Position numbers and translations under genes: made by a program
Shown: positions 5,321 to 58,276 of the stretch, piece by piece
Layout of the letters: every line of letters begins with the position of its first letter
Position numbering within the stretch: position 1 is the first letter of the stretch
IMG/VR virus record: IMGVR_UViG_3300037245_001637
Source of the DNA: an uncultured virus (IMG/VR IMGVR_UViG_3300037245_001637)
Lineage: Duplodnaviria > Heunggongvirae > Uroviricota > Caudoviricetes
Direction: 5' to 3' (one strand)
DNA length: 64,000 nucleotides
Notes under the pieces: model-generated
What the model was told of the DNA's origin: nothing
The model's input: the letters and a program-made list of their open reading frames with translations, nothing else
The model's database searches: none

Positions 5321-6103
5321 TTATATTTTTACTTGAAATATCCATCCTTTATGCTGAGGTTCTTCCCCCCTCGTACAAGCCGTCACGTGTCCTGCATGTA
5401 AATTGTGTTTTCTTGCAAACTCTGCTTGGTTAGTAAATTCCTCTACGTACCCGTCAGATAATCTTGTGCCAATATAAGTTAATCCTGTCAGACAAGGAGT
5501 GTGTCGTCTATTACCCTTTTTAGTGTTTTCTTTATGGGTAATGAACACACATGTATCTTTGGAATATATTTTATTTCCTTTGATTTTTGTGTCCTTGTCT
5601 ATATCATATTCCCGCATAGTGCCATTTATCCAGTCAGTATATCCTTCAAGTTGCATTATATCTCCACAAAAATCCTGAAAACACCACCATCTTATATCTA
5701 TCTCACAGTCTTTGTAAGATGAGTTCTTTGTCTTTTGTAGTTCTTCATCATAACACCGGGAGAAAATATTATGCCACAATGTACCTATCTTTGTAGTTTT
5801 GCCTTTTAATGATACTCTATGTTCCCCTTCTCCCACAAAACCTCGTTGATACAAAAAGGGATAAAACCTATTAAGAACTAGCCCTCTTTTTATACGACTC
5901 ATAGTAGCTATTGTTTTATGCCCATCAGTAAATTGTACCACAAACTTTGAGTAATATTTAGAGTTGTTCTTACTAATAGAATACTCATCTACTTGAGATA
6001 GCACAGTTATTTCCCCACTTTTACTGGTATTCCACACAGAGCCATTAAAATAAACTCTGCTTGTATTTCTTACTCTAATGGGTGTATCTTCTGTATACAT
6101 CAT
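5321..6103 (-). CDS. Free-standing homing-type endonuclease (HNH-like core, C-terminal NUMOD1/IENR1-like helix-turn-helix)
   Basis: LWHNIFSRCY..SYKDC..RWWCFQDFC..YDIDKD..GNKIYSKDTCVF..N; C-terminal EEFTNQAEFARKHNL..KGW; paralog of 42179-42982. Confidence 0.7.
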   Translation of the reverse strand: MMYTEDTPIRVRNTSRVYFNGSVWNTSKSGEITVLSQVDEYSISKNNSKYYSKFVVQFTDGHKTIATMSRIKRGLVLNRFYPFLYQRGFVGEGEHRVSLKGKTTKIGTLWHNIFSRCYDEELQKTKNSSYKDCEIDIRWWCFQDFCGDIMQLEGYTDWINGTMREYDIDKDTKIKGNKIYSKDTCVFITHKENTKKGNRRHTPCLTGLTYIGTRLSDGYVEEFTNQAEFARKHNLHAGHVTACTRGEEPQHKGWIFQVKI

Positions 6104-18737: not shown

Positions 18738-19736
18738 TTAAAGGGTTAACAAATCCTCTACCCCATGTACTCTTATTAACTCTTTATCTATTTTCCCTCC
18801 TTTTGATCTATTTGGGGAGGATGACCAGATACGCAAATTTCTATAATTCCACCAGTTATGTATCCATGCTTCGGCCTCTTGGTGTTTCCCTTCTTTTTTA
18901 GCCCTCTTTATTTTTGCTATAAAGTATTTTGATGGGATGATGTGATCACAATCAAATAGAATCTGTCCCTTCTCATTTTTGCTATAATCCCCTAGTGTGT
19001 ACTCTCCTAAATTTAAATGTTTTTGTAAAGCCTCTCTAGAGCATCCTATATATTTCATAATAGATGCAGTTTTTTGTACTCCTATTGTTTTTAGTTGCCT
19101 ATTTAAACTCTTGCCTAAATTGTTTTTAAGTCTGTGTAGAGGGTTGTTCTTTCTTCTAGCTTTCTCTTTTTCCCATTTTCTTAATTTGTTTTCTGGTTTT
19201 TGGGAATATTCCTTTCGGTATTTTCTTGAAGCTTCCTTATTTTCAGGTAAAGCATCGTACGCAGTTTTGTATTCCTTACGGTGTTTTTTATTTTCTGGAA
19301 GTTCTCTTGTCTGCTTTTGGGCTAGTTTAACTTCTGGCTTTTTATTATAGTTATCCCGCCATAGTTTTTCCGACAATATATTTTCTGGTTTTGCATGATA
19401 TTTTTTCATAGTCTCTTTATGCCTTTTTTTATTTTCAGGTAAATCCCTATACTTCTTTGTGCATTCTTTACACGTCCTAATAAACCCTGATTTTGTCTGT
19501 TTAGTTTTACCAAAAAACTCTGCTGTAAGTTCTTTAATTCCTTCACAAGTTCCACATTTTTGCATTCCTTGTGGAACTTGTTCCTTTATTACTGGGTGGT
19601 TTCTACAATCTTTACAAATACCAACAAATCCTGATTTTAACTTATTATTTCTATTAAAAAACTCTGCTGTGTGCTCTTTCACTGTTCCACACTGATTGCA
19701 TTTCTTCATTACTATTTGTTTTTCTTCTTGCTCCAA
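18738..19736 (-). CDS. HNH homing-type endonuclease with two N-terminal CxxC..CxxC zinc fingers and PENK helical repeats (TTG start)
   Basis: KKCNQC..EFF..SGF..CKDC twice; six YxxxPENK-like repeats; DCDHIIP..WWNYRNLRIW..PNRSKG. Confidence 0.8.
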   Translation of the reverse strand: MEQEEKQIVMKKCNQCGTVKEHTAEFFNRNNKLKSGFVGICKDCRNHPVIKEQVPQGMQKCGTCEGIKELTAEFFGKTKQTKSGFIRTCKECTKKYRDLPENKKRHKETMKKYHAKPENILSEKLWRDNYNKKPEVKLAQKQTRELPENKKHRKEYKTAYDALPENKEASRKYRKEYSQKPENKLRKWEKEKARRKNNPLHRLKNNLGKSLNRQLKTIGVQKTASIMKYIGCSREALQKHLNLGEYTLGDYSKNEKGQILFDCDHIIPSKYFIAKIKRAKKEGKHQEAEAWIHNWWNYRNLRIWSSSPNRSKGGKIDKELIRVHGVEDLLTL

Positions 19737-26397: not shown

Positions 26398-26604
26398 TTA
26401 AATCTCCTTACTTTTTGTAATTGCATCAGTTCCTGAATAATAAATACCCTCTATTTCTAGTATCGGCATAACCGCTAGTTGCTCTCTTTGAGCTACTTCC
26501 ATAATAGATTTCATGTTGTTAACTTCTTCAAAATCTACCTTTTTCTGTTTTAATACACTTTTTACTGCTTTACAATTAGGGCAATCATTACTGTATAATT
26601 TCAT
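26398..26604 (-). CDS. Glutaredoxin/NrdH-like redoxin (start MKLYS at 26604)
   Basis: CPNC active site; MPILEIEG. Confidence 0.85.
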   Translation of the reverse strand: MKLYSNDCPNCKAVKSVLKQKKVDFEEVNNMKSIMEVAQREQLAVMPILEIEGIYYSGTDAITKSKEI

Positions 26605-27883
26605 CTTCTCTTTTCTCCTTTCTTTTCTTATCATATATTTCTAACTCTTTAAAGTTAATTGAATTTAAGTCTATATGTTCTATATTACTAAAACATTCTC
26701 TTGCTGATCCTCCAAACCCTTTAGTAGGTTTGTAAAGGTAGTTGTGGTGTTTATTGTGTAGGTCTTTTTCTAAATATGTTCCATCGTACATATTAGTTTC
26801 TATTACATCTATTACTTGATATTGGTATGGCATGGTAGCATAATTAGGGTATCTACTTTGAACACTATTCTTGGTTACACCTATTTTGTAAAAATACTCT
26901 TTTGTAATGGAGTCAAAGCAATATATAGTATACACCTTTAGGTGTTCTGTAAGCCATTGTTCTTTGTTCTTCTCTGCGTTCTTAACTGTATACCTTCCGT
27001 GGTCAGCGCAGTCTCTACATCCATGAGAACAACCTAAATGATATCTTACTTGTTGATGAAATATCCCATGAACAGGGCATTTTAATACAAGAACTCTTTT
27101 ATTATCCTCATTTGTGTACACATCTATATAGTCATACTTGTTATTATGTATTTTGTTTCCTTTTTCTCTACACTCATCTAAGGAGTAAATATAAACAGGA
27201 GGTCCTGTTAGTGAGCCATTTTTGATACCCTCTTTTCTTCGTTGAGTTGTACAGTCAGGACAAAATCTTCCTCCTATATTATGACTGTGCATGATAACCT
27301 TAAACTCTCCATGTTCTTTACACTTTAACTTTAAACATCTGTTGCCTTCTTCATCTGTGTAAACATCTAAGTATTCATATTTATCTCCGTGTTTTTCTCG
27401 ACCTATTTTCTCACACTCCTCTAAAGTATAAAAAGTACTAGCTCGGAAACACTCCATACAACCATGATCTCTTTTATGGTTATTTATAGATGACCACCAC
27501 TTATGACCACAATCATTACAGAGGATATACACCTGTGTTTGAGATTTTTCTATCTTAAATTCTAAATATGTATATGCTTCTTCCCACGACTTTCTAAAAT
27601 CTTTTTCATGTCCTTCATTTCTATGTACAATGAAACATTCTCTACAAGGATTTTCCGATTTAACAAAAGTGCTGGGTGTTATTCTAAATATGTTTCCATC
27701 TACTAAACATCTTATTTCTACATGCAATCCTTTCCCATTTTTTACATACCACTCAACTATAATATATTTGTTATGTAATTTCTTTATCCTGTCTTCTACC
27801 CTTGGTCTCCACAAGCTCTTTTTATTTACACCTTTTCTGTCTTCTTTGTAAACTTCCCATGTTTCTTCTGAGTTACTGATAAT
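26588..27883 (-). CDS. Homing-type endonuclease with zinc-ribbon repeats and a C-terminal GIY-YIG-like domain; probable ATT start at 27883 (track start 27814)
   Basis: Repeats HGDKYEY..LKCKEHGEF..H..G..CPDC; C-terminal VYTI..FYKIGVT..RY..E..LH..FGGSARECF; frame open back to an AAGGGA RBS. Confidence 0.7.
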   Translation of the reverse strand: MISNSEETWEVYKEDRKGVNKKSLWRPRVEDRIKKLHNKYIIVEWYVKNGKGLHVEIRCLVDGNIFRITPSTFVKSENPCRECFIVHRNEGHEKDFRKSWEEAYTYLEFKIEKSQTQVYILCNDCGHKWWSSINNHKRDHGCMECFRASTFYTLEECEKIGREKHGDKYEYLDVYTDEEGNRCLKLKCKEHGEFKVIMHSHNIGGRFCPDCTTQRRKEGIKNGSLTGPPVYIYSLDECREKGNKIHNNKYDYIDVYTNEDNKRVLVLKCPVHGIFHQQVRYHLGCSHGCRDCADHGRYTVKNAEKNKEQWLTEHLKVYTIYCFDSITKEYFYKIGVTKNSVQSRYPNYATMPYQYQVIDVIETNMYDGTYLEKDLHNKHHNYLYKPTKGFGGSARECFSNIEHIDLNSINFKELEIYDKKRKEKREDEIIQ

Positions 27884-42153: not shown

Positions 42154-42182
42154 ATAATACACCAAATGATTATTTATGTCAA
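42154..42182 (-). promoter_or_regulatory. Sigma70-type promoter TTGACA-N17-TATTAT overlapping the endonuclease stop codon
   Basis: Boxes read directly from the sequence. Confidence 0.75.
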
Positions 42183-42982
42183 GTATTTTTCCTTTTTATT
42201 TCTATTTTCCACCCACCTGTTTCTTTAAGCTTCTCATTACAGCACATATTTACTTTATGTCTATCTAAATTATGTTTTTCAGCAAACTCTGATTGGTTAG
42301 TAAACTCTTCCTGATAATTATCCCATAATCTTGTCCCTACATATGTAAGTCCTGTTACCGTTTGCTTCTTATTATACCTTGCACAATTTTCCTTATGAGA
42401 TACAAATTTACACTTCTCTTTAGAGTATGCTTTATTACCATCTGCTTTTATATCTTTATCCAAATCATACTCATTAACTTTTGTATTACTTGCTTTCCAT
42501 AGGGAGTGCCCTTCTAAATGCTGAATATCTTCACAGAAGTTCTGAAAGTTGTGCCAACGCTCAGCTACTGTGCAATCTTTGTAAGTGGGATGCATTAAAT
42601 GATATTCTTCTGAGTAACATCGTCTAAGCATACTTAGCCATAAATTATATTCTTTTGTTATCTTTCCTCCCATTTTAATTTTCCATTTGCCTTGCCCGCT
42701 GAATCCTACATCCCATACAAATACCTTATTTGGATTTCTTACATCCCCTCTTCTAATATTACTATTTTCTGCTTGTACTTTAGTTCCATCTTCAAACTCT
42801 ACTATAAAATATTTATATGACTTATGTTTATTGCCTCTACTATATCCAAAATAGTATTTAGCCTCTTGTGCAATAATAGTTATTACACCACAATTATTTG
42901 TCTTATATGTACTTCCATTACAGTATGCTGTGCTTGAGTTTGTCTTTGTGGGGATATCTTCTCCACCTTCGTATAAAATCAT
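42179..42982 (-). CDS. Free-standing homing-type endonuclease (HNH-like, C-terminal NUMOD1-like HTH)
   Basis: YNLWLSMLRRCY..TYKDC..RWHNFQNFC..YDLDKD..GNKAYS..C.F; paralog of 5321-6103. Confidence 0.7.
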   Translation of the reverse strand: MILYEGGEDIPTKTNSSTAYCNGSTYKTNNCGVITIIAQEAKYYFGYSRGNKHKSYKYFIVEFEDGTKVQAENSNIRRGDVRNPNKVFVWDVGFSGQGKWKIKMGGKITKEYNLWLSMLRRCYSEEYHLMHPTYKDCTVAERWHNFQNFCEDIQHLEGHSLWKASNTKVNEYDLDKDIKADGNKAYSKEKCKFVSHKENCARYNKKQTVTGLTYVGTRLWDNYQEEFTNQSEFAEKHNLDRHKVNMCCNEKLKETGGWKIEIKRKNT

Positions 42983-44442: not shown

Positions 44443-45438
44443 TTATAATCCTGCCTGTTCATCTAAATAACTAATAAACCAATTTCTAGCTTTCATACCT
44501 AAAGGTCTTCCAATATCTTTAGGTTCTAACCCATTCTCATTCATAGTATCCATTTCTTCTGCTATAACATCTTTAGATACCCAACTCAAAAAGTCTCTCA
44601 TCATTTTAATATTTGGTTCTGTACCTGTACTCATAAATACCTGTTCCACTCCTTGATTTAATCTATTTTCAGTAATGGCATACTCTATAAAAGCTTCAAC
44701 AGATTTCACCTTCTCGACATCAACAGCAGCTATAGTCTTAACTCGACTTGCCGAGTGCAAACTTCCTTTACATTTAAAGATATAGTCTCTATGTCCATTC
44801 TCATCATAATGACAGAATACAATTCCTTCCCCTATTCCAGATACATCAAAATATTTTCCAACTGGACACTCCGCTTCCACTTGCTGAACCATATCTACAA
44901 TCTTTGCTTGTGCTAATTGAGGAATATTAAAATCAATATCTACTGTGTATTTAGGAAACATGTTTGAATTGAATATTTTATTATCAGGTGAACTTAAATC
45001 TGTTTTTTCATAAGAGTGTATTTCCCCATCTTCTAAACACGTGTACTTTATAGCAAAAATCACAAACATCTTTTCTAACTGATTTAAAGCTACTCCCTTT
45101 TGAATATTCCCACCTGCCCATTCTCCAAATATTGTTGCAATAAATCCTTCTCTTGAAATTTCTTTCATCCAAGTCTCAAATAACTCTTTATTACTATCCA
45201 CGAAAAAAGCAAAGCCAGAATTATCTTTCTCTATAGTAATAATATTCTTTCTACTCTGTGCCCATAATCCATCTTCTTTGGAATAGGATATTCCTGCATT
45301 TGTTCCGTGTAATTTTACTGTCCCTTCAAACGTTAATGTTGGGAACTCTGTTCTTGGTTCTTCTGGATTCACATAACATACATCTCTTATAACTTTTCTA
45401 AACTGATCTATTTTTGTAAACTTTTGCATTGTTTTCAT
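44443..45438 (-). CDS. RNA ligase, Rnl2 family
   Basis: Motif I TVKLHGTNA, QSR, IFGEWAGGNIQKG, GEGIV, FKCKG. Confidence 0.88.
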   Translation of the reverse strand: MKTMQKFTKIDQFRKVIRDVCYVNPEEPRTEFPTLTFEGTVKLHGTNAGISYSKEDGLWAQSRKNIITIEKDNSGFAFFVDSNKELFETWMKEISREGFIATIFGEWAGGNIQKGVALNQLEKMFVIFAIKYTCLEDGEIHSYEKTDLSSPDNKIFNSNMFPKYTVDIDFNIPQLAQAKIVDMVQQVEAECPVGKYFDVSGIGEGIVFCHYDENGHRDYIFKCKGSLHSASRVKTIAAVDVEKVKSVEAFIEYAITENRLNQGVEQVFMSTGTEPNIKMMRDFLSWVSKDVIAEEMDTMNENGLEPKDIGRPLGMKARNWFISYLDEQAGL

Positions 45439-45450
45439 TCTATTTCTCCT

Positions 45451-46395
45451 CTAAGCTTTTGTTAATAATTTTTCATATGTCAGGTTAGCTTTTAGCTTCT
45501 CTAACATCCCTACTTTATTCTTTCTTAAAGAAAATAGATATGGATGTAAAGGTTTTCCCATATACTTTATGATTGCTTGTGCAAATGCCTTATCACTTGT
45601 ATATTCCTCACTCCATTCTTTCTCTAGTTGTTTTAGTGATTCAACTACATCTAAGTGTGCTTCATACTTAACTCTGACCTCATTAAATATCTCTGTATAT
45701 TCAGGATAATAAATCAATAACTCCTTAGACTCTCCGCTAATAACTAGTTTTAACATTCTATCCTTAGATAGTACTCCATTGTTGTTCATATGATGTAAAT
45801 TCAAATAAGCCAATGATTTAACCTTTACTCTTGCCCACTGATCATCTAAAACAACATAACCTTCATCGTCAAACGGTAATTCTTCTGAGGTCTTAACCAT
45901 ATCCTCAAAGGTATTAAATGCATACTCTTTAGGCTTCTTAATTCCAATATCTACATTACTTTCTAAGCCTGTTAAATTGTTTCTCGTCCCTATATGAGTA
46001 ATACTTATTTCCTTATGCGGAACAACTACCCTATTATATGGTGAAGTAACTTCAAATATATAGGTTAGTGCTTTGTCTAATGCATCTATGTCTAAATCCT
46101 GCTCTGATGATGCTTTTGAAAATAAGTGACCAAAAGTATTTAATCCATCAGGACCTATCATAGGTAGATCTGTTTTGTATGCATCTATTACTCCGTTAGT
46201 TGCTGTGCACCATTGTCCATAGTAACAAAATAATTTCATTATAGATCCATCTACCTTCTCTAATATTTTAGCTGAGTTCCAATCTATTTTATGTGCTCTT
46301 CCATCATTATAGTTAAAAAACTTATCAAATGCGTGAGCTACAACAAAAGGATTTAGTCTATCCGCTACATCTACAATAATTCCTCTGCCTGTCTT
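45451..46395 (-). CDS. T4 Rnl1-like RNA ligase; open frame extends to 46395 without an ATG (N-terminus missing or non-canonical start)
   Basis: In frame upstream of the track start: RGIIVD, AFDKFFNY, motif I EKVDGS; downstream FEVTSPYNRVVV, EGYVV, RVKVKS. Confidence 0.8.
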   Translation of the reverse strand, partial: KTGRGIIVDVADRLNPFVVAHAFDKFFNYNDGRAHKIDWNSAKILEKVDGSIMKLFCYYGQWCTATNGVIDAYKTDLPMIGPDGLNTFGHLFSKASSEQDLDIDALDKALTYIFEVTSPYNRVVVPHKEISITHIGTRNNLTGLESNVDIGIKKPKEYAFNTFEDMVKTSEELPFDDEGYVVLDDQWARVKVKSLAYLNLHHMNNNGVLSKDRMLKLVISGESKELLIYYPEYTEIFNEVRVKYEAHLDVVESLKQLEKEWSEEYTSDKAFAQAIIKYMGKPLHPYLFSLRKNKVGMLEKLKANLTYEKLLTKA

Positions 46396-46712
46396 TTAAG
46401 CTTTCGCTGTTCATCATGGTACTCTATATCCTCACCAATATACACCCTGTCTCTTAAATCATCACCATAATTTCTATAGATACTATATATTTCTGTCCAA
46501 CCATAAGTATTAAAATCCCCTGATACTAAATTAAAGATCTTTTCAGTTAAATTTAATTCATCCTTCAATAATACAAGTTTTTTAAGATTCTCTTTTCTCA
46601 ATATCTCATGTTTTGTTATCCATTCCAATTCATGCATAGCTTTTTTCTTTGCTAATATTTCATCTAACTTTCTCTGGTTCTCTTCAAATATGTTTTTCGT
46701 TATTTTTCTCAT
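46371..46712 (-). CDS. Hypothetical protein
   Basis: GAGGGG RBS; directly behind a promoter. Confidence 0.6.
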   Translation of the reverse strand: MRKITKNIFEENQRKLDEILAKKKAMHELEWITKHEILRKENLKKLVLLKDELNLTEKIFNLVSGDFNTYGWTEIYSIYRNYGDDLRDRVYIGEDIEYHDEQRKLKRQAEELL

Positions 46713-46737
46713 TTAATACCCCTCTCTTTATGATTTA

Positions 46738-46766
46738 ATAATATACTAGTAAGTATTCTTTGTCAA
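46738..46766 (-). promoter_or_regulatory. Sigma70-type promoter TTGACA-N17-TATTAT
   Basis: Boxes read directly from the sequence. Confidence 0.7.
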
Positions 46767-46807
46767 GTGGTTTAAATAAAAAAGAACCTTTTTACAGGCT
46801 CTCTTGT

Positions 46808-47206
46808 TTACTTATATAATATGAACTTTGGGCCATGAGCAAAACTTCCATTGTATCTTTTGAAATGAATTTCATATTCAGAAGTATCATCAAAGTGTAA
46901 ATCTATCTTATTAGTATTACAATATTCCCCTTTAAACTTGTTCCAAGTCATATCATCCCAATAAGGTCTATTGTGTTCATCGTATCCAAGGGGATCGAGC
47001 TCTTCCATAAGGGAATCTTGTACTGAAACCAAGTGTGTCCAAAACTTCTTTCCCTTATTATAATTTTTTAATCCCGTGACTAATTCTTCAGTTATAGTCA
47101 CACCTGTAATAATATGCACTTCTTCCCATATTTTACATTTAGCTAACTCTACAAATTTATCTGTGTGGGTGTCTAAAATTCCATGAATGTCTAAGCCTAG
47201 TTTCAT
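46808..47206 (-). CDS. HAD-superfamily phosphatase-like protein
   Basis: LGLDIHGIL (motif I variant), IITG, K..YC..IDLHFDD. Confidence 0.65.
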   Translation of the reverse strand: MKLGLDIHGILDTHTDKFVELAKCKIWEEVHIITGVTITEELVTGLKNYNKGKKFWTHLVSVQDSLMEELDPLGYDEHNRPYWDDMTWNKFKGEYCNTNKIDLHFDDTSEYEIHFKRYNGSFAHGPKFILYK

Positions 47207-48393
47207 TTAATCCTCTCAGCTAAGTTGAATACAGCTCTGATATAATCTTCTGCTATTGGGTAAACACAAACACTTTTTCCTGGTGAATCTGATACCTTAA
47301 GAGTTGGGTGGCCATTACATCTAGTCATTTTAATAACAATCTGTAAAGGCGTTACATCTGGTATATCATTACTAAGTGATGTACCAATTCCAAAAGTACA
47401 GTTGATCTTACCTTTAAATCTTTCCCAAATCTCTCTTGCTTTAGATACTGTTAAACCATCACTCCAAATAAGTGTTTTAGTCTTAGGGTCTATGTTATGT
47501 TTTTCATAATTTTTTATAGCTTTTTCTCCCCATTCAAAAACATCCCCCGAATCTTGTCTAAGTCCGTCATAAAGTTTTAAATCAGAATAACTAAAATCCT
47601 CTAAAAACTTATCAAACGTGTAGGTGTCGGATAAGGCAATTAAATTGGAATCACTAAATTCCTCTGCCCATTTCTTAAACATATACTTCTGAGAGTTCTG
47701 TACAGATGTATCTTTCATACCAACCCCAGCGCAAATTACCTGATGACTCATTGTACCAATTGGTTCTAAATCTAGCTCCATAGCTAATTTAACATTGCTT
47801 GTCCCTTTAAAGTTTGGAAGTGTACTTAATTTTGTAACTACTTCTTCCTGCCATGATCTTGAAAATCTTCTTCTTGTTCCAAAATCAGAGAATGGAAAAC
47901 CTGTTTCTAAAGCATATTCATATTTTTCATTTAAAACTTCTCTAGCTTCCACCTGTAGATTAGTGTAATTTTCTTGTGATTTCATGTACATCTCTGTATG
48001 ATAAAAATAAACCTCATTAACAATAGCTAATATAGGGACTTCAAACATAACTGTATCTACCCAAGATCCTATAATCTTAATTCTTAATTGATCATCAGAT
48101 ATTATAATAGTTATGTTATGTCTATTTAATCTAAATCCCTGTAAGAACTCAATAAAGTCTTGTGTTATTGCTGGTTGTTTTCTTAAAAACATTAGTTCTC
48201 TGTTTGTAAAATCTAATGTGCATAAATAATCTACTTGATTGTGTATATCATTTAGCATAGCCTCATTCCATACAATGCCTTTATTTCTACATGTAAAGTC
48301 ATACTCAACCTGAGTATCTCTAAACTGGTGGTAAGCAAATTTTTGAACTGAAAAAGTATAAAAATCTGTGTCTAATAAACTCTCTATAATCAT
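47203..48393 (-). CDS. pncB: Nicotinate phosphoribosyltransferase
   Basis: SLLDTDFY, FEVPILAIV, DFGTRRRFS, GTSNV, GTMSH (phospho-His), GLRQDSGD, FGIGT, IVIKM..KVSDSPGK. Confidence 0.93.
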   Translation of the reverse strand: MIIESLLDTDFYTFSVQKFAYHQFRDTQVEYDFTCRNKGIVWNEAMLNDIHNQVDYLCTLDFTNRELMFLRKQPAITQDFIEFLQGFRLNRHNITIIISDDQLRIKIIGSWVDTVMFEVPILAIVNEVYFYHTEMYMKSQENYTNLQVEAREVLNEKYEYALETGFPFSDFGTRRRFSRSWQEEVVTKLSTLPNFKGTSNVKLAMELDLEPIGTMSHQVICAGVGMKDTSVQNSQKYMFKKWAEEFSDSNLIALSDTYTFDKFLEDFSYSDLKLYDGLRQDSGDVFEWGEKAIKNYEKHNIDPKTKTLIWSDGLTVSKAREIWERFKGKINCTFGIGTSLSNDIPDVTPLQIVIKMTRCNGHPTLKVSDSPGKSVCVYPIAEDYIRAVFNLAERIK

Positions 48394-48404
48394 CTTTGTT
48401 CTCC

Positions 48405-50246
48405 TTATCTCTCTATTTCTAATATCTTGCTTTTTAAAGAATCATATAATAAACTAGACTCCCAAGCAAACTGACTCTCTCTATGATCATAACCATAACA
48501 TGATTTAGATAACATTACAATAGGTGGAGCTTGAATTCTTTTAAATATAGCTTTTTGTATAGATTTAACAAACCATTCTAAGTCTTGCATGAATACCTCG
48601 GGATCTCTTAAATTATATTTCTCATATAGAGTAATAGGTAAGTTCATCTTATCACATAATTCATTGTCTAAATACCATTGCATAAAGTCCTCTGCTGAAT
48701 ATTTCTTGTAAGACATTAGCATCTCAATCATTCTATCATGATACCCAAACTTCATTGGGTCTAATTGAGCTTCTTTTAATTCTGCTGAAGGGGCTATACC
48801 CTCTAATCCGAAGTTAAAGTTCTCATCAGGAATCATGGACGAAGGAATAGTTTCCCCAAAAGTATCATTTATATATCTACACATCTCAAATACTTCTGCT
48901 TTAGTTAAATCTCCGATAGGACAGAATAGACCATTCATATCGCCATAAATCGTGCAGTACCCCGTTGCTATCTCTAACTTATTTCCATTGTTCGTCATTA
49001 CCCCCTTATGAATAGCTGTTAAATTAGACAAAATAGATGTTCCTCTAATTTTAGCTTGCATATTCTCCTCTACCAAAGAGGACAATTTAACATCTCTTCC
49101 TTGTTTTAAAGCTCTAATATTAGTTTCTACAAGATTTTGTATAGGAAGGACTCCATAATCTATACCCAAAGTGTGAGCTAAATCATACGCAGCATCTTTA
49201 GTCTTTTCAGAATTATATTCAGAAGGCATATTGTAACCTATTACTCTATCCTTACCTAGTGCGTGAACTGCTAAAGTAGTTGTTAAGGCAGAATCGATAC
49301 CACCTGAAATTCCCATTATATAGTTTGGTTTCCATTCCATCATCTCATCCATGCCCTGATAAGCTCTGATAATGGCTTTATACTTAGCCTTTATTTTTTC
49401 ATCATAAGAAAGATATGATTCTATTGGACGAGTATTTATTTCGGAATAGTTATAGTGTACTAGCCCTTCTTCAAACATATCTAAGGGACTTTCTAACGGA
49501 TAGCCATTAGGTGTGAATGCTCTGGAATCCCCGTCAAAAGTAACTATATTTTTACCATTGTTTTGTACACCACAGGCATTAACATATAAGAATGGAACCA
49601 TAGTACTACATAAATTTATAGTATTGCATATATCTGCGACTCTTCTATCTCTTGCTCTGTTTTTGCCATCTGTCCATGGAGAACAAGATATATTTATAAT
49701 TAAACTTGATCCAAGATTTACTAACCTGCTTGTAACAGTATTATAATAATCACCATCCCACATGTCTTCACAGATCTCCACACCAATCTCTGTTCCATTA
49801 TTAAGCTTTATTGGTTCATTCTGTGTCCACTCATTACTTGATATAAAATATCTTTTATCATCAAATATTCTATAGTTAGGTAAATTAGTTTTATGTACTA
49901 TTCCTTTTAATTCCTTATCTTCAAAAACATAAGCTGAATTCATTAATCCTTGTCTTCCGTCTTCTCCTTTTTCATGATCTAATCTGAACACATTTCCATA
50001 AATTAGGATTATGCCTTCTGAGGCCTCTAGTAAGATAGCATTAAAAGACAATAGATTATCTATATATGCTGAATTAGACCACTTATCTCCAACTAAATAA
50101 CCTCCGACAGCCATTTCAGGGAATGCTATGATATCTGAACCTAATTCCTTAGCTTCTTCAATCATTTCTAGCATTCTCTTAACATTCTTCTTAGGTCTTC
50201 CTGCTTTAACATCTAGTTGGGCTAGAGATATCTTTGGATTAGTCAT
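48405..50246 (-). CDS. nadE: Glutamine-dependent NAD+ synthetase
   Basis: Nitrilase triad FPEM / HKTNLPNY / EICEDMW; synthetase GISGGIDS, ENMQAKIRG, GNKLE..GYCTIYGD, PSAEL. Confidence 0.95.
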   Translation of the reverse strand: MTNPKISLAQLDVKAGRPKKNVKRMLEMIEEAKELGSDIIAFPEMAVGGYLVGDKWSNSAYIDNLLSFNAILLEASEGIILIYGNVFRLDHEKGEDGRQGLMNSAYVFEDKELKGIVHKTNLPNYRIFDDKRYFISSNEWTQNEPIKLNNGTEIGVEICEDMWDGDYYNTVTSRLVNLGSSLIINISCSPWTDGKNRARDRRVADICNTINLCSTMVPFLYVNACGVQNNGKNIVTFDGDSRAFTPNGYPLESPLDMFEEGLVHYNYSEINTRPIESYLSYDEKIKAKYKAIIRAYQGMDEMMEWKPNYIMGISGGIDSALTTTLAVHALGKDRVIGYNMPSEYNSEKTKDAAYDLAHTLGIDYGVLPIQNLVETNIRALKQGRDVKLSSLVEENMQAKIRGTSILSNLTAIHKGVMTNNGNKLEIATGYCTIYGDMNGLFCPIGDLTKAEVFEMCRYINDTFGETIPSSMIPDENFNFGLEGIAPSAELKEAQLDPMKFGYHDRMIEMLMSYKKYSAEDFMQWYLDNELCDKMNLPITLYEKYNLRDPEVFMQDLEWFVKSIQKAIFKRIQAPPIVMLSKSCYGYDHRESQFAWESSLLYDSLKSKILEIER

Positions 50247-50808
50247 TTATAACCTCTTCTGTAGTATACCCAATCTCAATATCTAAATCCATTAAATCCT
50301 GTTCAGTCTTCTGTGCTGATTCAGGAGATAAAGCCCCGCAAGCATCTAAAATTACCGTCACATCATCAAAATACTCTTTAGCATCTTTAGCTGTATTATA
50401 CACGCATACTTCTAATGCAAGACCAGTGATGTAAATTTGTACATCATTCTCTAAGTTATCTATCAAAGCTTTTAGGCCTGTTTCTTCTACACCATTTTCA
50501 TTTTTAAACGCTGAATAGCTATCTGCCTCTGGGTTCATTCCTTTTCTTAAGATATGCTTGATATGTGTTTGTTTTAGGTAAGGGGATAACTCTGCTCCTT
50601 TAGTTCCCCACACACAGTGTATAGGCCAATCAATAAATGCCTTCTTATGGAATGGGGGATGCCAGTCTTGCGTTGCTATAACTAAATCAAACAGTCCTGA
50701 GTTCGTTAACCTATTTACATTTGGGATAATATTCTCTGCGTTTGGTACAGCTAAACTCCCTGTAATGAAATCTTTTTGCAAATCTACTATAATTAATACT
50801 TTCTTCAT
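50239..50808 (-). CDS. pncA: Nicotinamidase
   Basis: VDLQKDF, TQDWHP..H, WPIHCV, LRKG, YSAF, GLALEVCV (D-K-C triad). Confidence 0.93.
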   Translation of the reverse strand: MKKVLIIVDLQKDFITGSLAVPNAENIIPNVNRLTNSGLFDLVIATQDWHPPFHKKAFIDWPIHCVWGTKGAELSPYLKQTHIKHILRKGMNPEADSYSAFKNENGVEETGLKALIDNLENDVQIYITGLALEVCVYNTAKDAKEYFDDVTVILDACGALSPESAQKTEQDLMDLDIEIGYTTEEVIND

Positions 50809-50821
50809 TTATTTCTCCTCT

Positions 50822-51094
50822 CTAAACCTCTAATTTCCATATAGATTCCCTTGCAACGAAGTCATAGCCAACAGGAAGATTATCTATAAAATAGCAATCT
50901 CCATCGGATATGTCCCACTCATCTGAGTATGTGGGTTTTTCTGCAAATAAGTGTACCATTCTCTCATCATCTATTGTTATGTATGTTAACTCTGTATATT
51001 CTATAAATACAGAGAAATTAGTCACTAAAGTCTTTATATACTCCTCTACATTCTTATCTGTTATAACTCTTTTTCCAACTGTTACTTTCTTCAT
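50822..51094 (-). CDS. Hypothetical protein
   Basis: GAAGGAG RBS; ATGA overlap with the upstream ORF. Confidence 0.6.
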   Translation of the reverse strand: MKKVTVGKRVITDKNVEEYIKTLVTNFSVFIEYTELTYITIDDERMVHLFAEKPTYSDEWDISDGDCYFIDNLPVGYDFVARESIWKLEV

Positions 51095-51264
51095 TTTTTC
51101 TCCTTCATCTTCGTATATTCTTTAATTGCAATCTCTTGCACCTCTTCCTTGATACCCTCTTTTTCTAAGAAGTCATCAAAGGTGGGTCTTTTCTTATTTA
51201 TCTTCTGTCTTTTTAATTTCTTTAATAAGTTTAACATTATTTCTCCTCTCTTATTTATATTAAA

Positions 51265-51293
51265 ACTATACATTATTTAATTATTTGTGTCAA
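51265..51293 (-). promoter_or_regulatory. Sigma70-type promoter TTGACA-N17-TATAGT upstream of pncA-nadE-pncB
   Basis: Boxes read directly from the sequence. Confidence 0.7.
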
Positions 51294-51295
51294 TA

Positions 51296-52324
51296 CTATT
51301 TCCGAACTAATTTTTCTTTTAAGAAGTAACGTATGATCCTAAGGTGATCTGCGTAAAACATTCCATCCATATTCTTTAATTCATCAATGGGAATCCATCT
51401 AACATCTAATGCATCGTCTTGGGCTGTTATTCTAGGTAATTCTTCAAATCCTTCTAATTCTAGTGCATAACATTCAGTCACGAAGCGTCCTCTTGTGTCT
51501 CTACCGACAAGATCAAAGTGATTATTATGAATAATGGATGCTTGTAAGACACTCATGGGAACATCAATACCTGCTTCTTCATTTAGTTCTCTTAAAGCAC
51601 AATTTCTAATGCTCTCGTTCTTTTCAAGAAAACCCCCAGGAAGAGCGAGTTGTCCTCGTCCAGGCATAGCTTTTCTAGTGATTATCAATATATGATCATT
51701 ACATCTAACAAAGGCATCTCCTGTTAGAAAAGTTGGAGAATAAGGAGCAAAAACCCATGGTTTAATGTATTTTTCTTGTACAACTCTCCACCAATCTTGT
51801 AGATAAATAAAGGATCCAAAGATATAGTTCCTATATGATTCTAACCAAAGTCTTATTTCCTTTGGTACTTGATTTTGCCACCAATTATCTTCTACAAAAA
51901 AGGAATTTCTAATACTCGTAGCCGATAAGCCATTCTCTAACTCTTCTACTTCTACTAGTTCCCATGTAGGGAACAGGTTTAAATAAAAGGAGGAATGATC
52001 CTTAAAGTGTCCTAAAAGTTTTACTGTATCTGTTTCCTTAGTTACTTCTTTAACAGACTTTACTAGTGTATCACACCATACATGATTGTTATAATTTGAA
52101 TCTGCTTGATGAACAAAGGTTATTTCTTTATTGGGGTATACTGCCTCGATCATAATCTGTCTTTCTGAAGCCGTGAAGGGGTTGTCAATGGATCGAGATT
52201 CAGTAGCTGACCCCAATACTATAATTACTTGTTCACCCTCTTCAAACGCTCTATCTACTAATGCTTTATGGCCATTATGGAATGGTTGCATCCTACCTAT
52301 TATAATTGCTTTATCTGCTTTCAT
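51296..52324 (-). CDS. nadM: Bifunctional NMN/NaMN adenylyltransferase - Nudix ADP-ribose pyrophosphatase (NadM-Nudix)
   Basis: GRMQPFHNGH, GSA..NPFT..ER, SATSIR; Nudix box GGFLEKNESIRNCALRELNEEAG; DTRGR; QDDA; ADH. Confidence 0.93.
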   Translation of the reverse strand: MKADKAIIIGRMQPFHNGHKALVDRAFEEGEQVIIVLGSATESRSIDNPFTASERQIMIEAVYPNKEITFVHQADSNYNNHVWCDTLVKSVKEVTKETDTVKLLGHFKDHSSFYLNLFPTWELVEVEELENGLSATSIRNSFFVEDNWWQNQVPKEIRLWLESYRNYIFGSFIYLQDWWRVVQEKYIKPWVFAPYSPTFLTGDAFVRCNDHILIITRKAMPGRGQLALPGGFLEKNESIRNCALRELNEEAGIDVPMSVLQASIIHNNHFDLVGRDTRGRFVTECYALELEGFEELPRITAQDDALDVRWIPIDELKNMDGMFYADHLRIIRYFLKEKLVRK

Positions 52325-52727
52325 AATTTTCCTGCTCCTATATAATTTAATAATTTATGTAATATATTGTAAGATGTTTCTAATCCTGCTCTATCATCTA
52401 ACAAAATATTATAATATATCTTACCAGAATTCTTAAATTGAGGCAAGTAGTTTATATTTATTCCTTCAATTTTAATTCCTATCTCTTTACAATACTCTTG
52501 TATCATCTGATGATCCTGATTTGCTGTAAAGATAACCAAAGGCAAATTATACTTATTACACCTTTTCAATAATTCTAACATCACAGGGTACTTTGTTCCT
52601 TCATTAAAGAAATCAAAGATAGTTCCATCAAAATCCACAGCAATTATTAAACTATTATGTTTTTGTAATCATTTAATAATCTATTGTATGCATTCTCTGA
52701 ATTTAGGTATGGATCTGATAATTTCAT
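52321..52727 (-). CDS. HAD-family phosphatase, apparently frameshifted at an A5 run (52660-52664)
   Basis: Strong RBS plus MKLSDPY..YK in one frame; HNSLIIAVDFDGT..FTAN..KIYYNILLDDRAG in the other. Confidence 0.7.
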
Positions 52728-54973: not shown

Positions 54974-55687
54974 CTAAAGAGTTAGTAAATCTTCAATTCC
55001 ATATTGAGCAATTAAATCATGATCTACAGTAGCAGATTTAGTAAGATTGTCCTTTGCAGGCCAGACTCTGAGATTTCGTGGATTCCACCATTTATATAAC
55101 CATGGTTCCGTTTCTGGGGTTATATTATTGTCTGCGTCCAGTTTTAATTTCTTCAAATAATAATCAGAAGGGATTATGTGATCTATATGAAATAGTATTA
55201 CATCTTTGGTGTTCCTTATATAATCTGTAGCTGTGTATATTCCTGAATTAAAATGATCCAAGAGTTCTTTTTTAGTACAGTCTGTATAGTGCATAGTTCC
55301 ATGAGGCTTAACTGTATTCATCCTTTTTAGTAATACACTAAAAGCAGAACTCATGTTTGCCTTTATCTTATAGAGGGGACTGTCTTTATGCAAATCTTTA
55401 CTATTTTTTAGTGGCGCTGAGGTTTTCTTTTTTATTACATTCCTTTGGGAGCCTTTTATTTTTTTCTTAAATCCCTCTTTTTTATATTCTTTACCGTATT
55501 CTTTTTGATAATCTTTATACTCTGGTAATGCTCTATAATCTTTCATATACTCTTTCCTGCAACTTTTGCATTGGTTATCAAACCCATTACGTTTTGTTTT
55601 GTCTTTATAGAAAAATTCTTTTGTTTGCTCTTTTGTCTCTTCACATTTTGGACATTCATACAGGGCTACTTTTTCTTCTTTGTTCAT
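54974..55687 (-). CDS. HNH homing-type endonuclease with N-terminal zinc finger
   Basis: CPKC..EFF..NGF..CKSC; HIDHIIP..WWNPRNLRVW..DNLTKS; paralog of 18738-19736 (both end EDLLTL). Confidence 0.8.
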   Translation of the reverse strand: MNKEEKVALYECPKCEETKEQTKEFFYKDKTKRNGFDNQCKSCRKEYMKDYRALPEYKDYQKEYGKEYKKEGFKKKIKGSQRNVIKKKTSAPLKNSKDLHKDSPLYKIKANMSSAFSVLLKRMNTVKPHGTMHYTDCTKKELLDHFNSGIYTATDYIRNTKDVILFHIDHIIPSDYYLKKLKLDADNNITPETEPWLYKWWNPRNLRVWPAKDNLTKSATVDHDLIAQYGIEDLLTL

Positions 55688-55902: not shown

Positions 55903-56024
55903 ATTTAGCCTTTCGTTGTAGTTTATAAATAAAAACCCTCAAAACCGAAGCCTGAGGGAAAAATACATGAATATATTTTATTAAATGAAAAAGAGGACTA
56001 AAATGAAAAGATTATCATTTGTTT

Positions 56025-56096
56025 TAGCAGGAGACGGATTTGAACCGCCGACCGTTGGGATATGAGCCCACTAAGCTACCACTGCTCCATCCTGCT
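56025..56096 (-). tRNA. tRNA-Met(CAT), initiator-like; CCA not encoded
   Basis: Acceptor AGCAGGA/TCCTGCT-A; D arm GAGC..GCTT; anticodon arm with GGG/CCC around CTCATAT; T arm GGCGG TTCAAAT CCGTC. Confidence 0.93.
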
Positions 56097-56328
56097 ACGT
56101 TTTAAATAATCCTCCCAATTTCTCAGGAGGATTTCATTGAGCCTTATTTTGATTAAGGTGTTCATCCGCTCTGGGAACACAATTTTAGCTACAAACTTAA
56201 AGGTATTGTCTCACCTGATTTTAGCTCTCCTCCTCAAAGGGGAGCTCATATAGATCCACTAATGAATCCAGCTAACTACTTAAAGTTAGTCTTAAAAATT
56301 AAAGAACCTACTGTAGATTCTCTTCTAC

Positions 56329-56514
56329 CTAAGAAAAGTGGCGAGGCATAATAGTTTTAACTTTACCCCGTTTAGCTTCTTCCATTGCTCCTGCTAATAC
56401 TTCATACAGTTGGTTTGATAAGGCTGTTGCTGTATCACCTGCGCAGTTAAAACCTTCGGCCTTAAGGAATTTTTTCATCTTACTAACCACAATTAAACAT
56501 TCTTTTTCATCCAT
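56329..56514 (-). CDS. Bacterial histone-fold protein (Bd0055-like)
   Basis: LIVVSKMKKFLK..GFNCAGDT..ALS..L..AMEEAKRGKVKTIMPRH aligns by eye with Bd0055 as recalled (LVVTSKVKKLIK..MNTSAET..VLS..AKADGRKTVMARD). Confidence 0.8.
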   Translation of the reverse strand: MDEKECLIVVSKMKKFLKAEGFNCAGDTATALSNQLYEVLAGAMEEAKRGKVKTIMPRHFS

Positions 56515-56574
56515 TTTCTAAATCTCCTATCGATTTCTTTTTAATTTTATTTTAAATCTACTTAGAGTAGATAT

Positions 56575-57125
56575 TTATGCTCTTTCTTCTGGTATAAAAT
56601 GAATACTCAAATTAACCAACTGTCCATCTTCTTGTCTTTCCCACGATAATGCCTCGACTGAGCAAAGATTGATGCCCATAGTGTTAGGTATTACTTCCAA
56701 GGGTAAAGGGCTAGAATTATCCTCTATTAGTTCGTCTACTGTTTTGTAAATTTTTGTCATTTATTATCCTATTTAAATTTTAAATGTATTTGATATAAAG
56801 GTTTCGCTTTTATATAGGAAGTGGAATCTATAAAATCCTTTAAACAACTTGCTGTTTTCAGCCAAGTAAGCTCAGTGTTTGCTTTCTCTTCGACATTACC
56901 TGAGTAATACCAGAAAGTCTCCTCTCCTTCAGCTATAGCTTTCTCTATTAAAGTAAATAAATCATATCCTGTTTCAGATTTCCCATTATCCTCACTAAAA
57001 CCCTTCCCTAGTTTTGTTATTATGTCTTGTTTAAACTCATTAAATGCTATAGATCTTTGTCTTACTTTGTGTAAGTTTTCTACTTTCTCTCTTGATATGT
57101 CTTCTTTTATAATTTTTCTTGTCAT
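56575..57125 (-). other. Two hypothetical CDSs (56575-56760, 56769-57125)
   Basis: RBS-led ORFs. Confidence 0.65.
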
Positions 57126-57142
57126 TACTGCTCCTTTTTAAA

Positions 57143-57296
57143 TAAATAGTCTTTCCTATTAGTCATCGGTTTGACTTTCTTACGAAAAATCCACCCTCTT
57201 CACAGAGGTCATACCTACAATGGTATCTTTGGCGCACCCGACACGAAACGCTCGCAATCAATACTCTATATAAAAATATTCACTGAGGACTATTTC
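57143..57296 (-). ncRNA. Putative multibranch structured RNA
   Basis: Closing stem aaatagtc/gactattt; internal hairpins atacc/ggtat, cctct-GTGA-agagg and agtca/tgact; GC-enriched intergenic island. Confidence 0.45.
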
Positions 57297-57302
57297 TTAA
57301 AT

Positions 57303-57343
57303 AAAAACCCTCACCAAGAAAACTAATAACTCAGTGAGGGGTT
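57303..57343 (-). terminator. Terminator-like hairpin
   Basis: Minus strand aacccctcactgag..cttggtgagggttttt. Confidence 0.55.
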
Positions 57344-58247
57344 GAAGATACTCTCATACCTTCATGAGGAAAAAACCAAAACTTTTTAATGCTACTTTTT
57401 TAAATATATACTATAAAGAAAAAAACTAATTCTTATTAAACATCTCACAGACATACTTGAATAATACTTCTGCTGACTTATCTAAATCTCCTTCAAAACA
57501 AAGTAATCCATCTTTCTTGAATAGTTTACCTATTGCTTCATTATCTTGTATATTAAAGACAATTTCAGAAGGTTGTATGTTTTGAAGAGAGGCTGTATAA
57601 GCTAATTGGGTTTTATCCTGAAACTCTTCAAAATTTTTGTACTTTACTGTATCTGTTGTACTATTATTTATTGTTACTTCTTTTTCTGGTTGCTGTATAT
57701 GTGTACAACCTGAAGAGCATACCTTTAAACCTATGTTGTGTTCTTTCATGTGTTTCTGAACTTCTTGTTCATGCTTTTCGTTTATCATTCAAACTCTCCT
57801 GTAAGATACTGCTCATTATCGGCTTTAATCTTCTCTATATCTTCAAAAGCTGTTTCGATAGCTTCTAAAGCCTCTGCATCTGTTTCAAATATAACATCTT
57901 CATCCTCGACATCTTTACCTAATTGTTTTTTGAGGTAGTCTGATGTGTTGATAGCTACTTTTAATAGTTTATGGTAACTATTTGTTAATACAACAAAGTC
58001 TTCTATTTCTTCCCCAAGAAAATTATCTATAACTGTTTGTTGCTTGAGGTAATGACTTCTAGCGTTAATTTTATCCATGGTATACGTCATATCGGAGAGA
58101 ATTTTCCAATCTTTATCCTGGATAAGCCTCCCTGAGCAATACATTCTTCTTATCCAGTGTAAATACTCATGGTATCTTGTTTTATTTATATTTTCATCAT
58201 ACATACTTTTATATTACCTTTTTAAATCTTTTTATTTAACTTTCTAT

Positions 58248-58276
58248 AGTATAGCACACTTTTCTTTATAAGTCAA
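58248..58276 (-). promoter_or_regulatory. Sigma70-type promoter TTGACT-N17-TATACT
   Basis: Boxes read directly from the sequence. Confidence 0.65.

Follow-up and report, generated by a model that had tools for sequence, protein, structure and literature searches.

Sequence and predicted structure point to a phage-encoded α3-truncated histone-fold protein without the usual Arg-Asp clamp

The 64,000-nucleotide stretch of DNA analysed in this study (hereafter, the window), from an uncultured virus (IMG/VR record IMGVR_UViG_3300037245_001637), contains a 61-codon frame that had been proposed, from the letters alone, to encode a Bd0055-like bacterial histone in which both residues of the Arg-Asp (RD) clamp are changed. 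Bacterial histones were recognised only in 2023. The locus raises the question of whether this frame is a real gene of a phage, whether its product has a histone fold, and how such a protein might act on DNA with its clamp replaced.

The frame runs from an ATG start through 61 codons at 56329..56514 on the minus strand, a strand that the original prediction had not given. An AGGAG ribosome-binding site, read from the sequence, lies 9 nt 5' of the ATG (56524..56528, minus strand), as had been noted. Both residue patterns described at the outset are also present, namely V9, S11, K12, K14, K15, L17, and K18 in helix 1 and A47, K48, K51, K53, T54, I55, M56, P57, R58, and H59 near the C-terminus. 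A phmmer search of 1,835,955,588 representative proteins returned 34 matches at E<=1e-3 (top E 7e-14), and only P0002, P0003, and P0004 are close relatives, with 60-61 residues, 57-66% identity, and E-values of 7e-14 to 8e-13. The closest of them, P0002, is identical to an ORF on a 1768-bp metagenome contig (L001). A comparison of the histone gene with the L001 gene at 60 aligned codons gave pN 0.27 and pS 0.74, with synonymous sites saturated, and a pN this far below pS indicates purifying selection in the histone frame. Moreover, the ORF directly upstream of the L001 histone gene is homologous (27% identity, E 1e-16) to a 139-aa ORF that lies three ORFs upstream of the histone gene in the window (57785..58204, minus strand). 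The three full-length relatives and this shared neighbour indicate that a related element has kept the gene together with some of the genes around it.

A chance ORF or a decaying, functionless remnant might be suspected from the shortness of the frame and from its family searches. In Pfam, neither a histone family nor DUF1931 was matched (best E 0.13, in unrelated families), PHROGs gave no match at E<=1e-5, and a word-indexed protein search returned nothing beyond the query itself. Pfam likewise gave no match for a cellular homologue (L002). However, the frame is intact and preceded by a ribosome-binding site, and the full-length relatives, the conserved neighbourhood, and the low pN relative to pS already contradict this reading, which can hardly be right. 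The GC content of the gene (37.6%; GC3 29%) is similar to that of neighbouring genes, so the gene was not recently imported from a high-GC donor.

Judging from its encoded proteins, the window clearly belongs to a large tailed phage. From a set of 135 non-overlapping ORFs with a minimum length of 50 aa, the 126 on the minus strand were scanned against PHROGs and the nine on the plus strand were left out; 35 of the 126 matched at E<=1e-5. The matches include a DNA primase, a DHH phosphoesterase, a tRNA nucleotidyltransferase, NrdD/NrdG, an Ant/Bro protein, two RNA ligases, NAD-salvage enzymes, and several HNH and endonuclease VII-like nucleases. Additionally, a 675-aa protein shares 49-51% identity with proteins from Clostridioides phage pCD1602_4 and from Bacillus Bastille-like phages, and a radical-SAM protein is approximately 46% identical to proteins of T4-like Klebsiella phages. 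These matches agree with the proposal that the histone is phage-encoded. Megablast of 20 kb against 50,697 GenBank phages found no nucleotide-level match, and no structural genes occur within the 64-kb window. The GC content of the window is 32.4%. One sequencing run, a metagenome from marine sediment that may be the source, was listed with this DNA, and no RNA run was listed. A Nitrospinota host, considered from the low GC and the nearest cellular relatives, was dropped, as the tree described below gives no such link.

Elsewhere in the window, an auxiliary cluster on the minus strand (44443-52638) encodes the two RNA ligases, a nicotinamide phosphoribosyltransferase, an NAD synthetase, a cytidyltransferase/Nudix (NadR-like) protein, and a phosphoheptose-isomerase-like protein. 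Homing-type nucleases lie at 5321-6103, 42179-42982, 26588-27814, 18738-19736, and 54974-55687, all on the minus strand; the set comprises two paralogous HNH proteins (phrog_2081), an HNH/endonuclease beside nrdD, and two endonuclease VII/Lar-like proteins.

The fold of the phage protein was assessed by sequence searches of the PDB and by structure prediction. With the single protein, phmmer matched HLp of Leptospira perolatii (9qt0, E 4.5e-8) and HBb/Bd0055 (8cmp and 8fvx, ~3e-4). A profile of the four closest sequences matched HLp at 1.7e-13, HBb at 5e-11, and the archaeal face-to-face histone HTkC (9f2c) at 5e-5, with weak matches to archaeal HmvA and eukaryotic H2B and H2A.Z. The alignment with HLp is gapless, whereas a gap in loop 1 is needed with HBb. 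AlphaFold2 gave a pLDDT of 73 from the single sequence and of 92.0 from a 68-sequence alignment (A2) composed mostly of cellular histones, so the latter model partly restates homology and is not fully independent of sequence. In this model, α1 spans residues 10-19, α2 residues 28-49 (22 residues), and a one-turn α3 residues 57-60 (4 residues). Foldseek against the PDB ranked nine α3 histone chains best, followed by eukaryotic core histones at TM 0.52-0.68. The model superposes on HLp with TM 0.85/0.92 and an rmsd of 1.0 Å, on HBb with TM 0.86-0.87, and on HTkC with TM 0.80.

Schwab 2024 (PMC11390915) defines α3-truncated histones by an α3 cut to 3-4 residues and a shortened α2. The model of the phage protein has the same α1-L1-α2-L2-α3 order, an α3 of that length, and an α2 shorter than in nucleosomal histones. 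AlphaFold and Foldseek comparisons had been named in advance as the check on the proposed fold, and their outcome, together with the PDB E-values, bears the histone fold out, clearly against the non-histone prediction that would have refuted it. By sequence and model, the protein is a genuine bacterial α3-truncated histone-fold protein that has no usual Arg-Asp clamp. A six-frame profile scan of the window found no second histone fold (next best E 1.5).

To locate functional residues, we mapped those reported for HLp through the gapless alignment; the position in the phage protein is the published number minus 3, an offset taken from matching residue identities. As given in PMC12701072, the RD clamp of HLp is R55-D62, the tetramer residues are R49, N53, and R55, with T61, and the DNA contacts are A13, S14, K15, K17, K21, T27, G29, K54, T56, T57, and R59. 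The clamp positions correspond to V52 and H59 in the phage protein, exactly the change to V and H that had been noted. The tetramer residues R49, N53, and R55 are replaced by E46, G50, and V52, and T61 by R58; the face-to-face signature is therefore absent. In contrast, identity is kept at 7 of the 11 DNA contacts (S11, K12, K14, K18, G26, K51, and T54). Among the others, T56 becomes K53, the lysine of the usual R-K-T motif, and A13 and T27 become V10 and C24. R59, the largest contributor to the binding energy in HLp according to the same source, becomes M56, as in HBb.

All four close sequences carry S11, K12, K14, K18, G26, K51, K53, and T54, and of these residues S11, K12, K14, and T54 are invariant over the 68 aligned sequences. 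The hydrophobic core of helix 2 is conserved in both sets. The helix-1 lysines of bacterial dimeric histones (HMM positions 11, 13, and 17) are found with equal spacing as K12, K14, and K18, the offset of one between the two numberings being deduced; K14 is invariant and K12 nearly so when the 189 distinct domains described below are considered with the 68-sequence alignment. The bacterial-dimer motif RKT....D is kept only at K53 and T54, with V52 in place of R and H59 in place of D. By residue pattern, the DNA-facing surface is therefore kept, whereas the face-to-face tetramer interface and the clamp are absent. The total charge is only mildly basic (10 K+R against 8 D+E, pI 8.66). In PMC10627809 and PMC11317129, the RD clamp is said to stabilise the L1-L2 DNA-binding arrangement. 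With V52 and H59 in its place, DNA binding could be weaker or altered, and this is the chief reason for doubt over the DNA-binding mechanism.

To see how unusual the loss of the clamp is, we ran the A2 profile on 35 proteins and on the plus-strand frames of 160 loci, which gave 214 domains, 189 of them distinct. In this sample, chosen by likeness to the phage protein and thus not a measure of family-wide frequencies, 184 of the 189 domains carry both Arg and Asp at the clamp positions. The five exceptions are the phage protein itself (V,H), P0003 (N,H), P0019 (K,H), and both halves of P0018 (V,H and K,gap), and all five carry Lys at position 51. Every domain with His at 59 has no Arg at 52, and this constant pairing fits a functional partnership of the two residues. 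P0018 (131 aa) is a two-fold doublet and P0019 has 69 aa; both are further α3 histones with no RD clamp and with His at the Asp position.

A maximum-likelihood tree was built from 82 domains over 60 columns after removal of 132 of the 214 rows as 80% near-duplicates; its bootstrap was incompletely converged. A 15-row clade carrying the R..N.R tetramer signature has support of 90/90, a 58-row clade of dimer-type and ZZ-type sequences has 96/87, and the branch uniting the two has 81/87. The phage protein, P0003, the pair P0002 and P0004 (100/95), P0019, and P0018 all fall outside this branch and do not form one clade; the four-sequence group requires 3 changes and is recovered in 9% of bootstrap trees. 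The phage protein thus lies outside the HLp-type group and also outside the dimer/ZZ clade, at the low resolution that 60 columns allow. We read its group as a small separate lineage with no firm placement.

Cellular relatives were gathered by a metagenome scan, with 224 relatives among 327 pattern matches (80 of the 224 kept), and by a genome scan, with 128 relatives among 208 pattern matches (80 of the 128 kept). The nearest of them, among the matches listed, are 62-aa singlets of 44-47% identity on low-GC (37-39%) contigs or MAGs labelled Nitrospinota or Nitrospirae. One such singlet is chromosomal, judging from the adjoining dnaE, FBPase, and HtrA genes. Most other cellular relatives listed are C-terminal domains of ZZ-type histones from Kofleriaceae and other Myxococcota (many of L006-L160), and the histone domain of the Myxococcota ZZ-type proteins has the loop-1 motif G-F/M-N-C in common with the phage protein. 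Two-fold (doublet) α3 histones of 119-162 aa make up 20 of the 34 phmmer matches. Among P0005-P0031, several doublets carry the face-to-face R..N.R signature in both halves, which suggests fused pseudodimers of the tetramer-forming type.

In two of the nearest ESM Atlas clusters, Uroviricota is the commonest known phylum, a lead only, with the phylum known for 5 of 184 members in one cluster and 20 of 145 in the other. Proteins from uncultured tailed phages that are similar in structure, at 20-25% identity, occur in BFVD. A tblastn search with the phage protein and P0019 against the 50,697 GenBank phages gave no match at E<=1. Six pattern-seeded scans of IMG/VR found no relative; these scans require exact short peptide patterns and do not imply absence. 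Their sole match, a 164-aa ORF (L161, 3532-4026), was rejected, as it has only a short Lys-rich start in common and a non-histone fold.

Comparison with solved proteins refines the original description as Bd0055-like. The best match, at 34-35% identity, is HLp (PDB 9QT0-2; PMC12701072), which is of the same length class, with a short α2 and a one-turn α3, and has the S-K motif, the helix-1 lysines, the loop-2 Lys (K54/K51), and the Thr in common with the phage protein. The differences lie in R49, N53, R55, and the R55-D62 clamp, all replaced in the phage protein, and in R59, which becomes Met; moreover, HLp is a bacterial chromosomal histone, whereas the query is a phage gene. HBb/Bd0055 of Bdellovibrio bacteriovorus (PDB 8CMP, 8FVX, 9EZZ, 9F0E) is 34% identical at TM 0.86-0.87. 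Similar to the phage protein, HBb has no tetramer signature and carries Met at the position of HLp R59; in contrast, it keeps the RD clamp (R51-D58, augmented by D49). The label was therefore inexact as to the nearest solved relative but may be apt as to the oligomer, since the missing tetramer residues make the dimer the better working analogy.

A phage histone of this kind is also less novel than had been implied. According to a 2025 hLife study (PMC13681535), Caudoviricetes encode 84 bacterial-like histone-fold proteins, including a Bd0055-like cluster (BBVHFP) of predicted dimers, while its bench work concerned only eukaryote-like triplet and H4 proteins. The BBVHFP are described there as phage-encoded, Bd0055-like in structure, and predicted to have a helical C-terminus; the query, compared by description and not by sequence, has these features too (TM 0.86-0.87, helix 57-60). 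They come from IMG/VR 4 and PhageScope, with predicted Pseudomonadota hosts. Schwab 2024 (PMC11390915) describes, within the α3 family, a 'phage histone' category with a C-terminal tetramerisation helix and no R.T...D motif. The query resembles these in its α3-type fold, its tailed-phage origin, and the missing motif. However, their C-terminal helix, predicted to tetramerise and bridge DNA, is absent from the query, which ends at residue 61, one residue past α3, and thus also differs from the VTTHFP of the hLife study. The BFVD neighbours that resemble the Schwab 'phage histones' are 99-139 aa long, with 20-25% identity to the query. The phage protein therefore clearly belongs to the α3 family, and it departs from the strict motifs of the bacterial-dimer, face-to-face, and 'phage histone' categories. 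It is a divergent variant of the computationally described phage Bd0055-like histone-fold proteins (Schwab 2024; hLife 2025). Supplements aside, our literature searches brought up neither bench work on a bacterial-type histone encoded by a phage nor any reference to a clamp-less lineage.

How might such a protein act? By analogy with its solved relatives, it is probably a histone-fold homodimer that acts as a nucleoid-associated protein made by the phage, binding DNA non-specifically and bending or coating it. The polypeptide would fold only as a homodimer, and the dimer would bind DNA with no sequence preference through the helix-1 lysine ridge and the L1 and L2 loops, with S11, K12, K14, K18, G26, K51, K53, and T54 as the proposed contacts. 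Such a protein could then organise or shield the replicating phage genome, or compact and silence the host nucleoid. Two other phages offer analogies of proposed function only, as their proteins have folds unrelated to the query. Both SPO1 TF1, an HU homologue, and phi29 p6 are small, abundant, early proteins whose binding and bending of phage DNA serves replication and the early-to-late switch, a role proposed for the query too. The bound dimer would bend or coat DNA as reported for HBb (PMC11317129), and this dimeric bending mode serves as our working model.

An HLp-like face-to-face tetramer wrapping about 60 bp of DNA was considered, as HLp is the best match in both sequence and structure and K51 corresponds to its DNA-contacting K54. 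The replacement of R49, N53, and R55, and of T61 as well, speaks against it, as does the position of the query outside the R..N.R clade. A DNA-wrapping tetramer is thus less likely than an HBb-like dimer, and we consider it quite improbable. Equally improbable is a poison subunit, which would pair with a host α3 histone so that the clamp-less half-site disables host chromatin. In its favour, the nearest cellular relatives, at 44-47% identity, are singlets labelled Nitrospinota, the hydrophobic helix-2 core is conserved, and both clamp partners are lost only in this small lineage. However, the phage lineage is not adjacent to the Nitrospinota sequences in the tree, and the likeness of the other phage proteins is to phages that infect Firmicutes and enterobacteria. 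To our knowledge, histones have not been reported in such hosts. Histone folds occur in only 1.86% of bacterial genomes (Hocher 2023). Furthermore, the DNA-contact residues are retained, although a pure poison would not need them.

The histone fold could also serve as a protein-protein module with no role in DNA binding, for instance by binding a phage or host factor. Such use has been proposed for DUF1931 pseudodimers, and some prokaryotic histone-fold groups have no DNA-binding residues (Schwab 2024). The loss of the RD clamp, the only mildly basic charge, and an acidic 61-aa ORF directly upstream would suit this function. In contrast, three elements that together mark the DNA-binding groups are invariant in the clade, namely the lysines of helix 1, the 'paired ends of helices' S-K motif, and the loop-2 K-T, and we regard a pure protein-binding role as unlikely. 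Among these readings, the non-specific DNA-binding homodimer remains the one we favour.

A more far-reaching and rather doubtful proposal is that the query, P0003, P0019, and the doublet P0018 form a separate clamp-less α3 lineage with its own mode of action, marked by Arg52 changed to V, N, or K, Asp59 changed to His, and an extra Lys51. Of these, the query and P0003 have a link to phages, which for P0003 consists solely in its likeness to the query. If this were true, the shape of loop 2, and thus DNA affinity, could switch with pH or metal through the His; alternatively, a half-site could poison host histone dimers. The clamp-less protein would then be a phage tool for chromatin takeover and not a plain copy of a host histone. 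Irrespective of this proposal, the query offers a compact, easily expressed 61-residue phage histone from a large lytic-type phage, with a natural double substitution in the clamp, which ranks among the best conserved features of histones. The protein could reveal the part that the clamp plays in loop-2 geometry and DNA binding, and also whether phages use histones for packaging or shielding phage DNA or for a takeover of the host nucleoid. Its value is moderate, as proteins of this kind have been described before and no unusual mechanism is shown here.

The histone gene sits among small uncharacterised ORFs, upstream of a tRNA and a terminator-like hairpin. The strongly acidic 61-aa ORF directly upstream (56575..56760, minus strand; pI 4.28, no family match) probably shares a transcription unit with the histone gene, and its product might partner or chaperone the mildly basic histone. 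Between the two lies a weak 6-bp hairpin with an A/T-rich run (56556..56572, minus strand), which the terminator scan did not call. Downstream, a 231-nt spacer (56098..56328, minus strand) that folds better than its shuffles (z -3.3) leads from the histone stop to a tRNA-Met (CAT) (56024..56097, minus strand; Rfam tRNA 58.8 bits), the sole tRNA found in the 64 kb. The terminator scan found an intrinsic-terminator-like hairpin of 8 pairs (4 G-C) with a T-run at 55936..55958 (minus strand), likely the end of the unit that contains the histone gene and the tRNA.

Further upstream, a 118-aa ORF (56769..57125, minus strand) is the first after a hairpin/T-run element at 57299-57340, one of two such elements in the intergenic stretch 57126-57425 on the minus strand (the other at 57195-57208). 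The element at 57299-57340 separates the histone group from two further upstream ORFs. A strong sigma-70-like match, TTGACT-17-TATACT with TG (10/12; 58248..58276, minus strand), precedes the 139-aa ORF, and with the hairpin intervening, this site may not drive the histone gene. Such promoter-like sites are no commoner in the region (11) than in shuffles (mean 13.9), so the match is only a hint. Apart from the tRNA, Rfam searched at E<=1 around the gene returned only sub-threshold matches; one of these, to the 'Histone3' stem-loop, scored 15.8 bits against a gathering threshold of 34 and was set aside as noise. Within the spacer, positions 56132-56184 give a sub-threshold match to the 6A RNA (28.7 bits against a gathering threshold of 41.2, E 0.007). 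The intergenic region at 57126-57425 (minus strand), with no match in Rfam, is locally GC-rich and structured (z -3.2) and could hold a small RNA gene.
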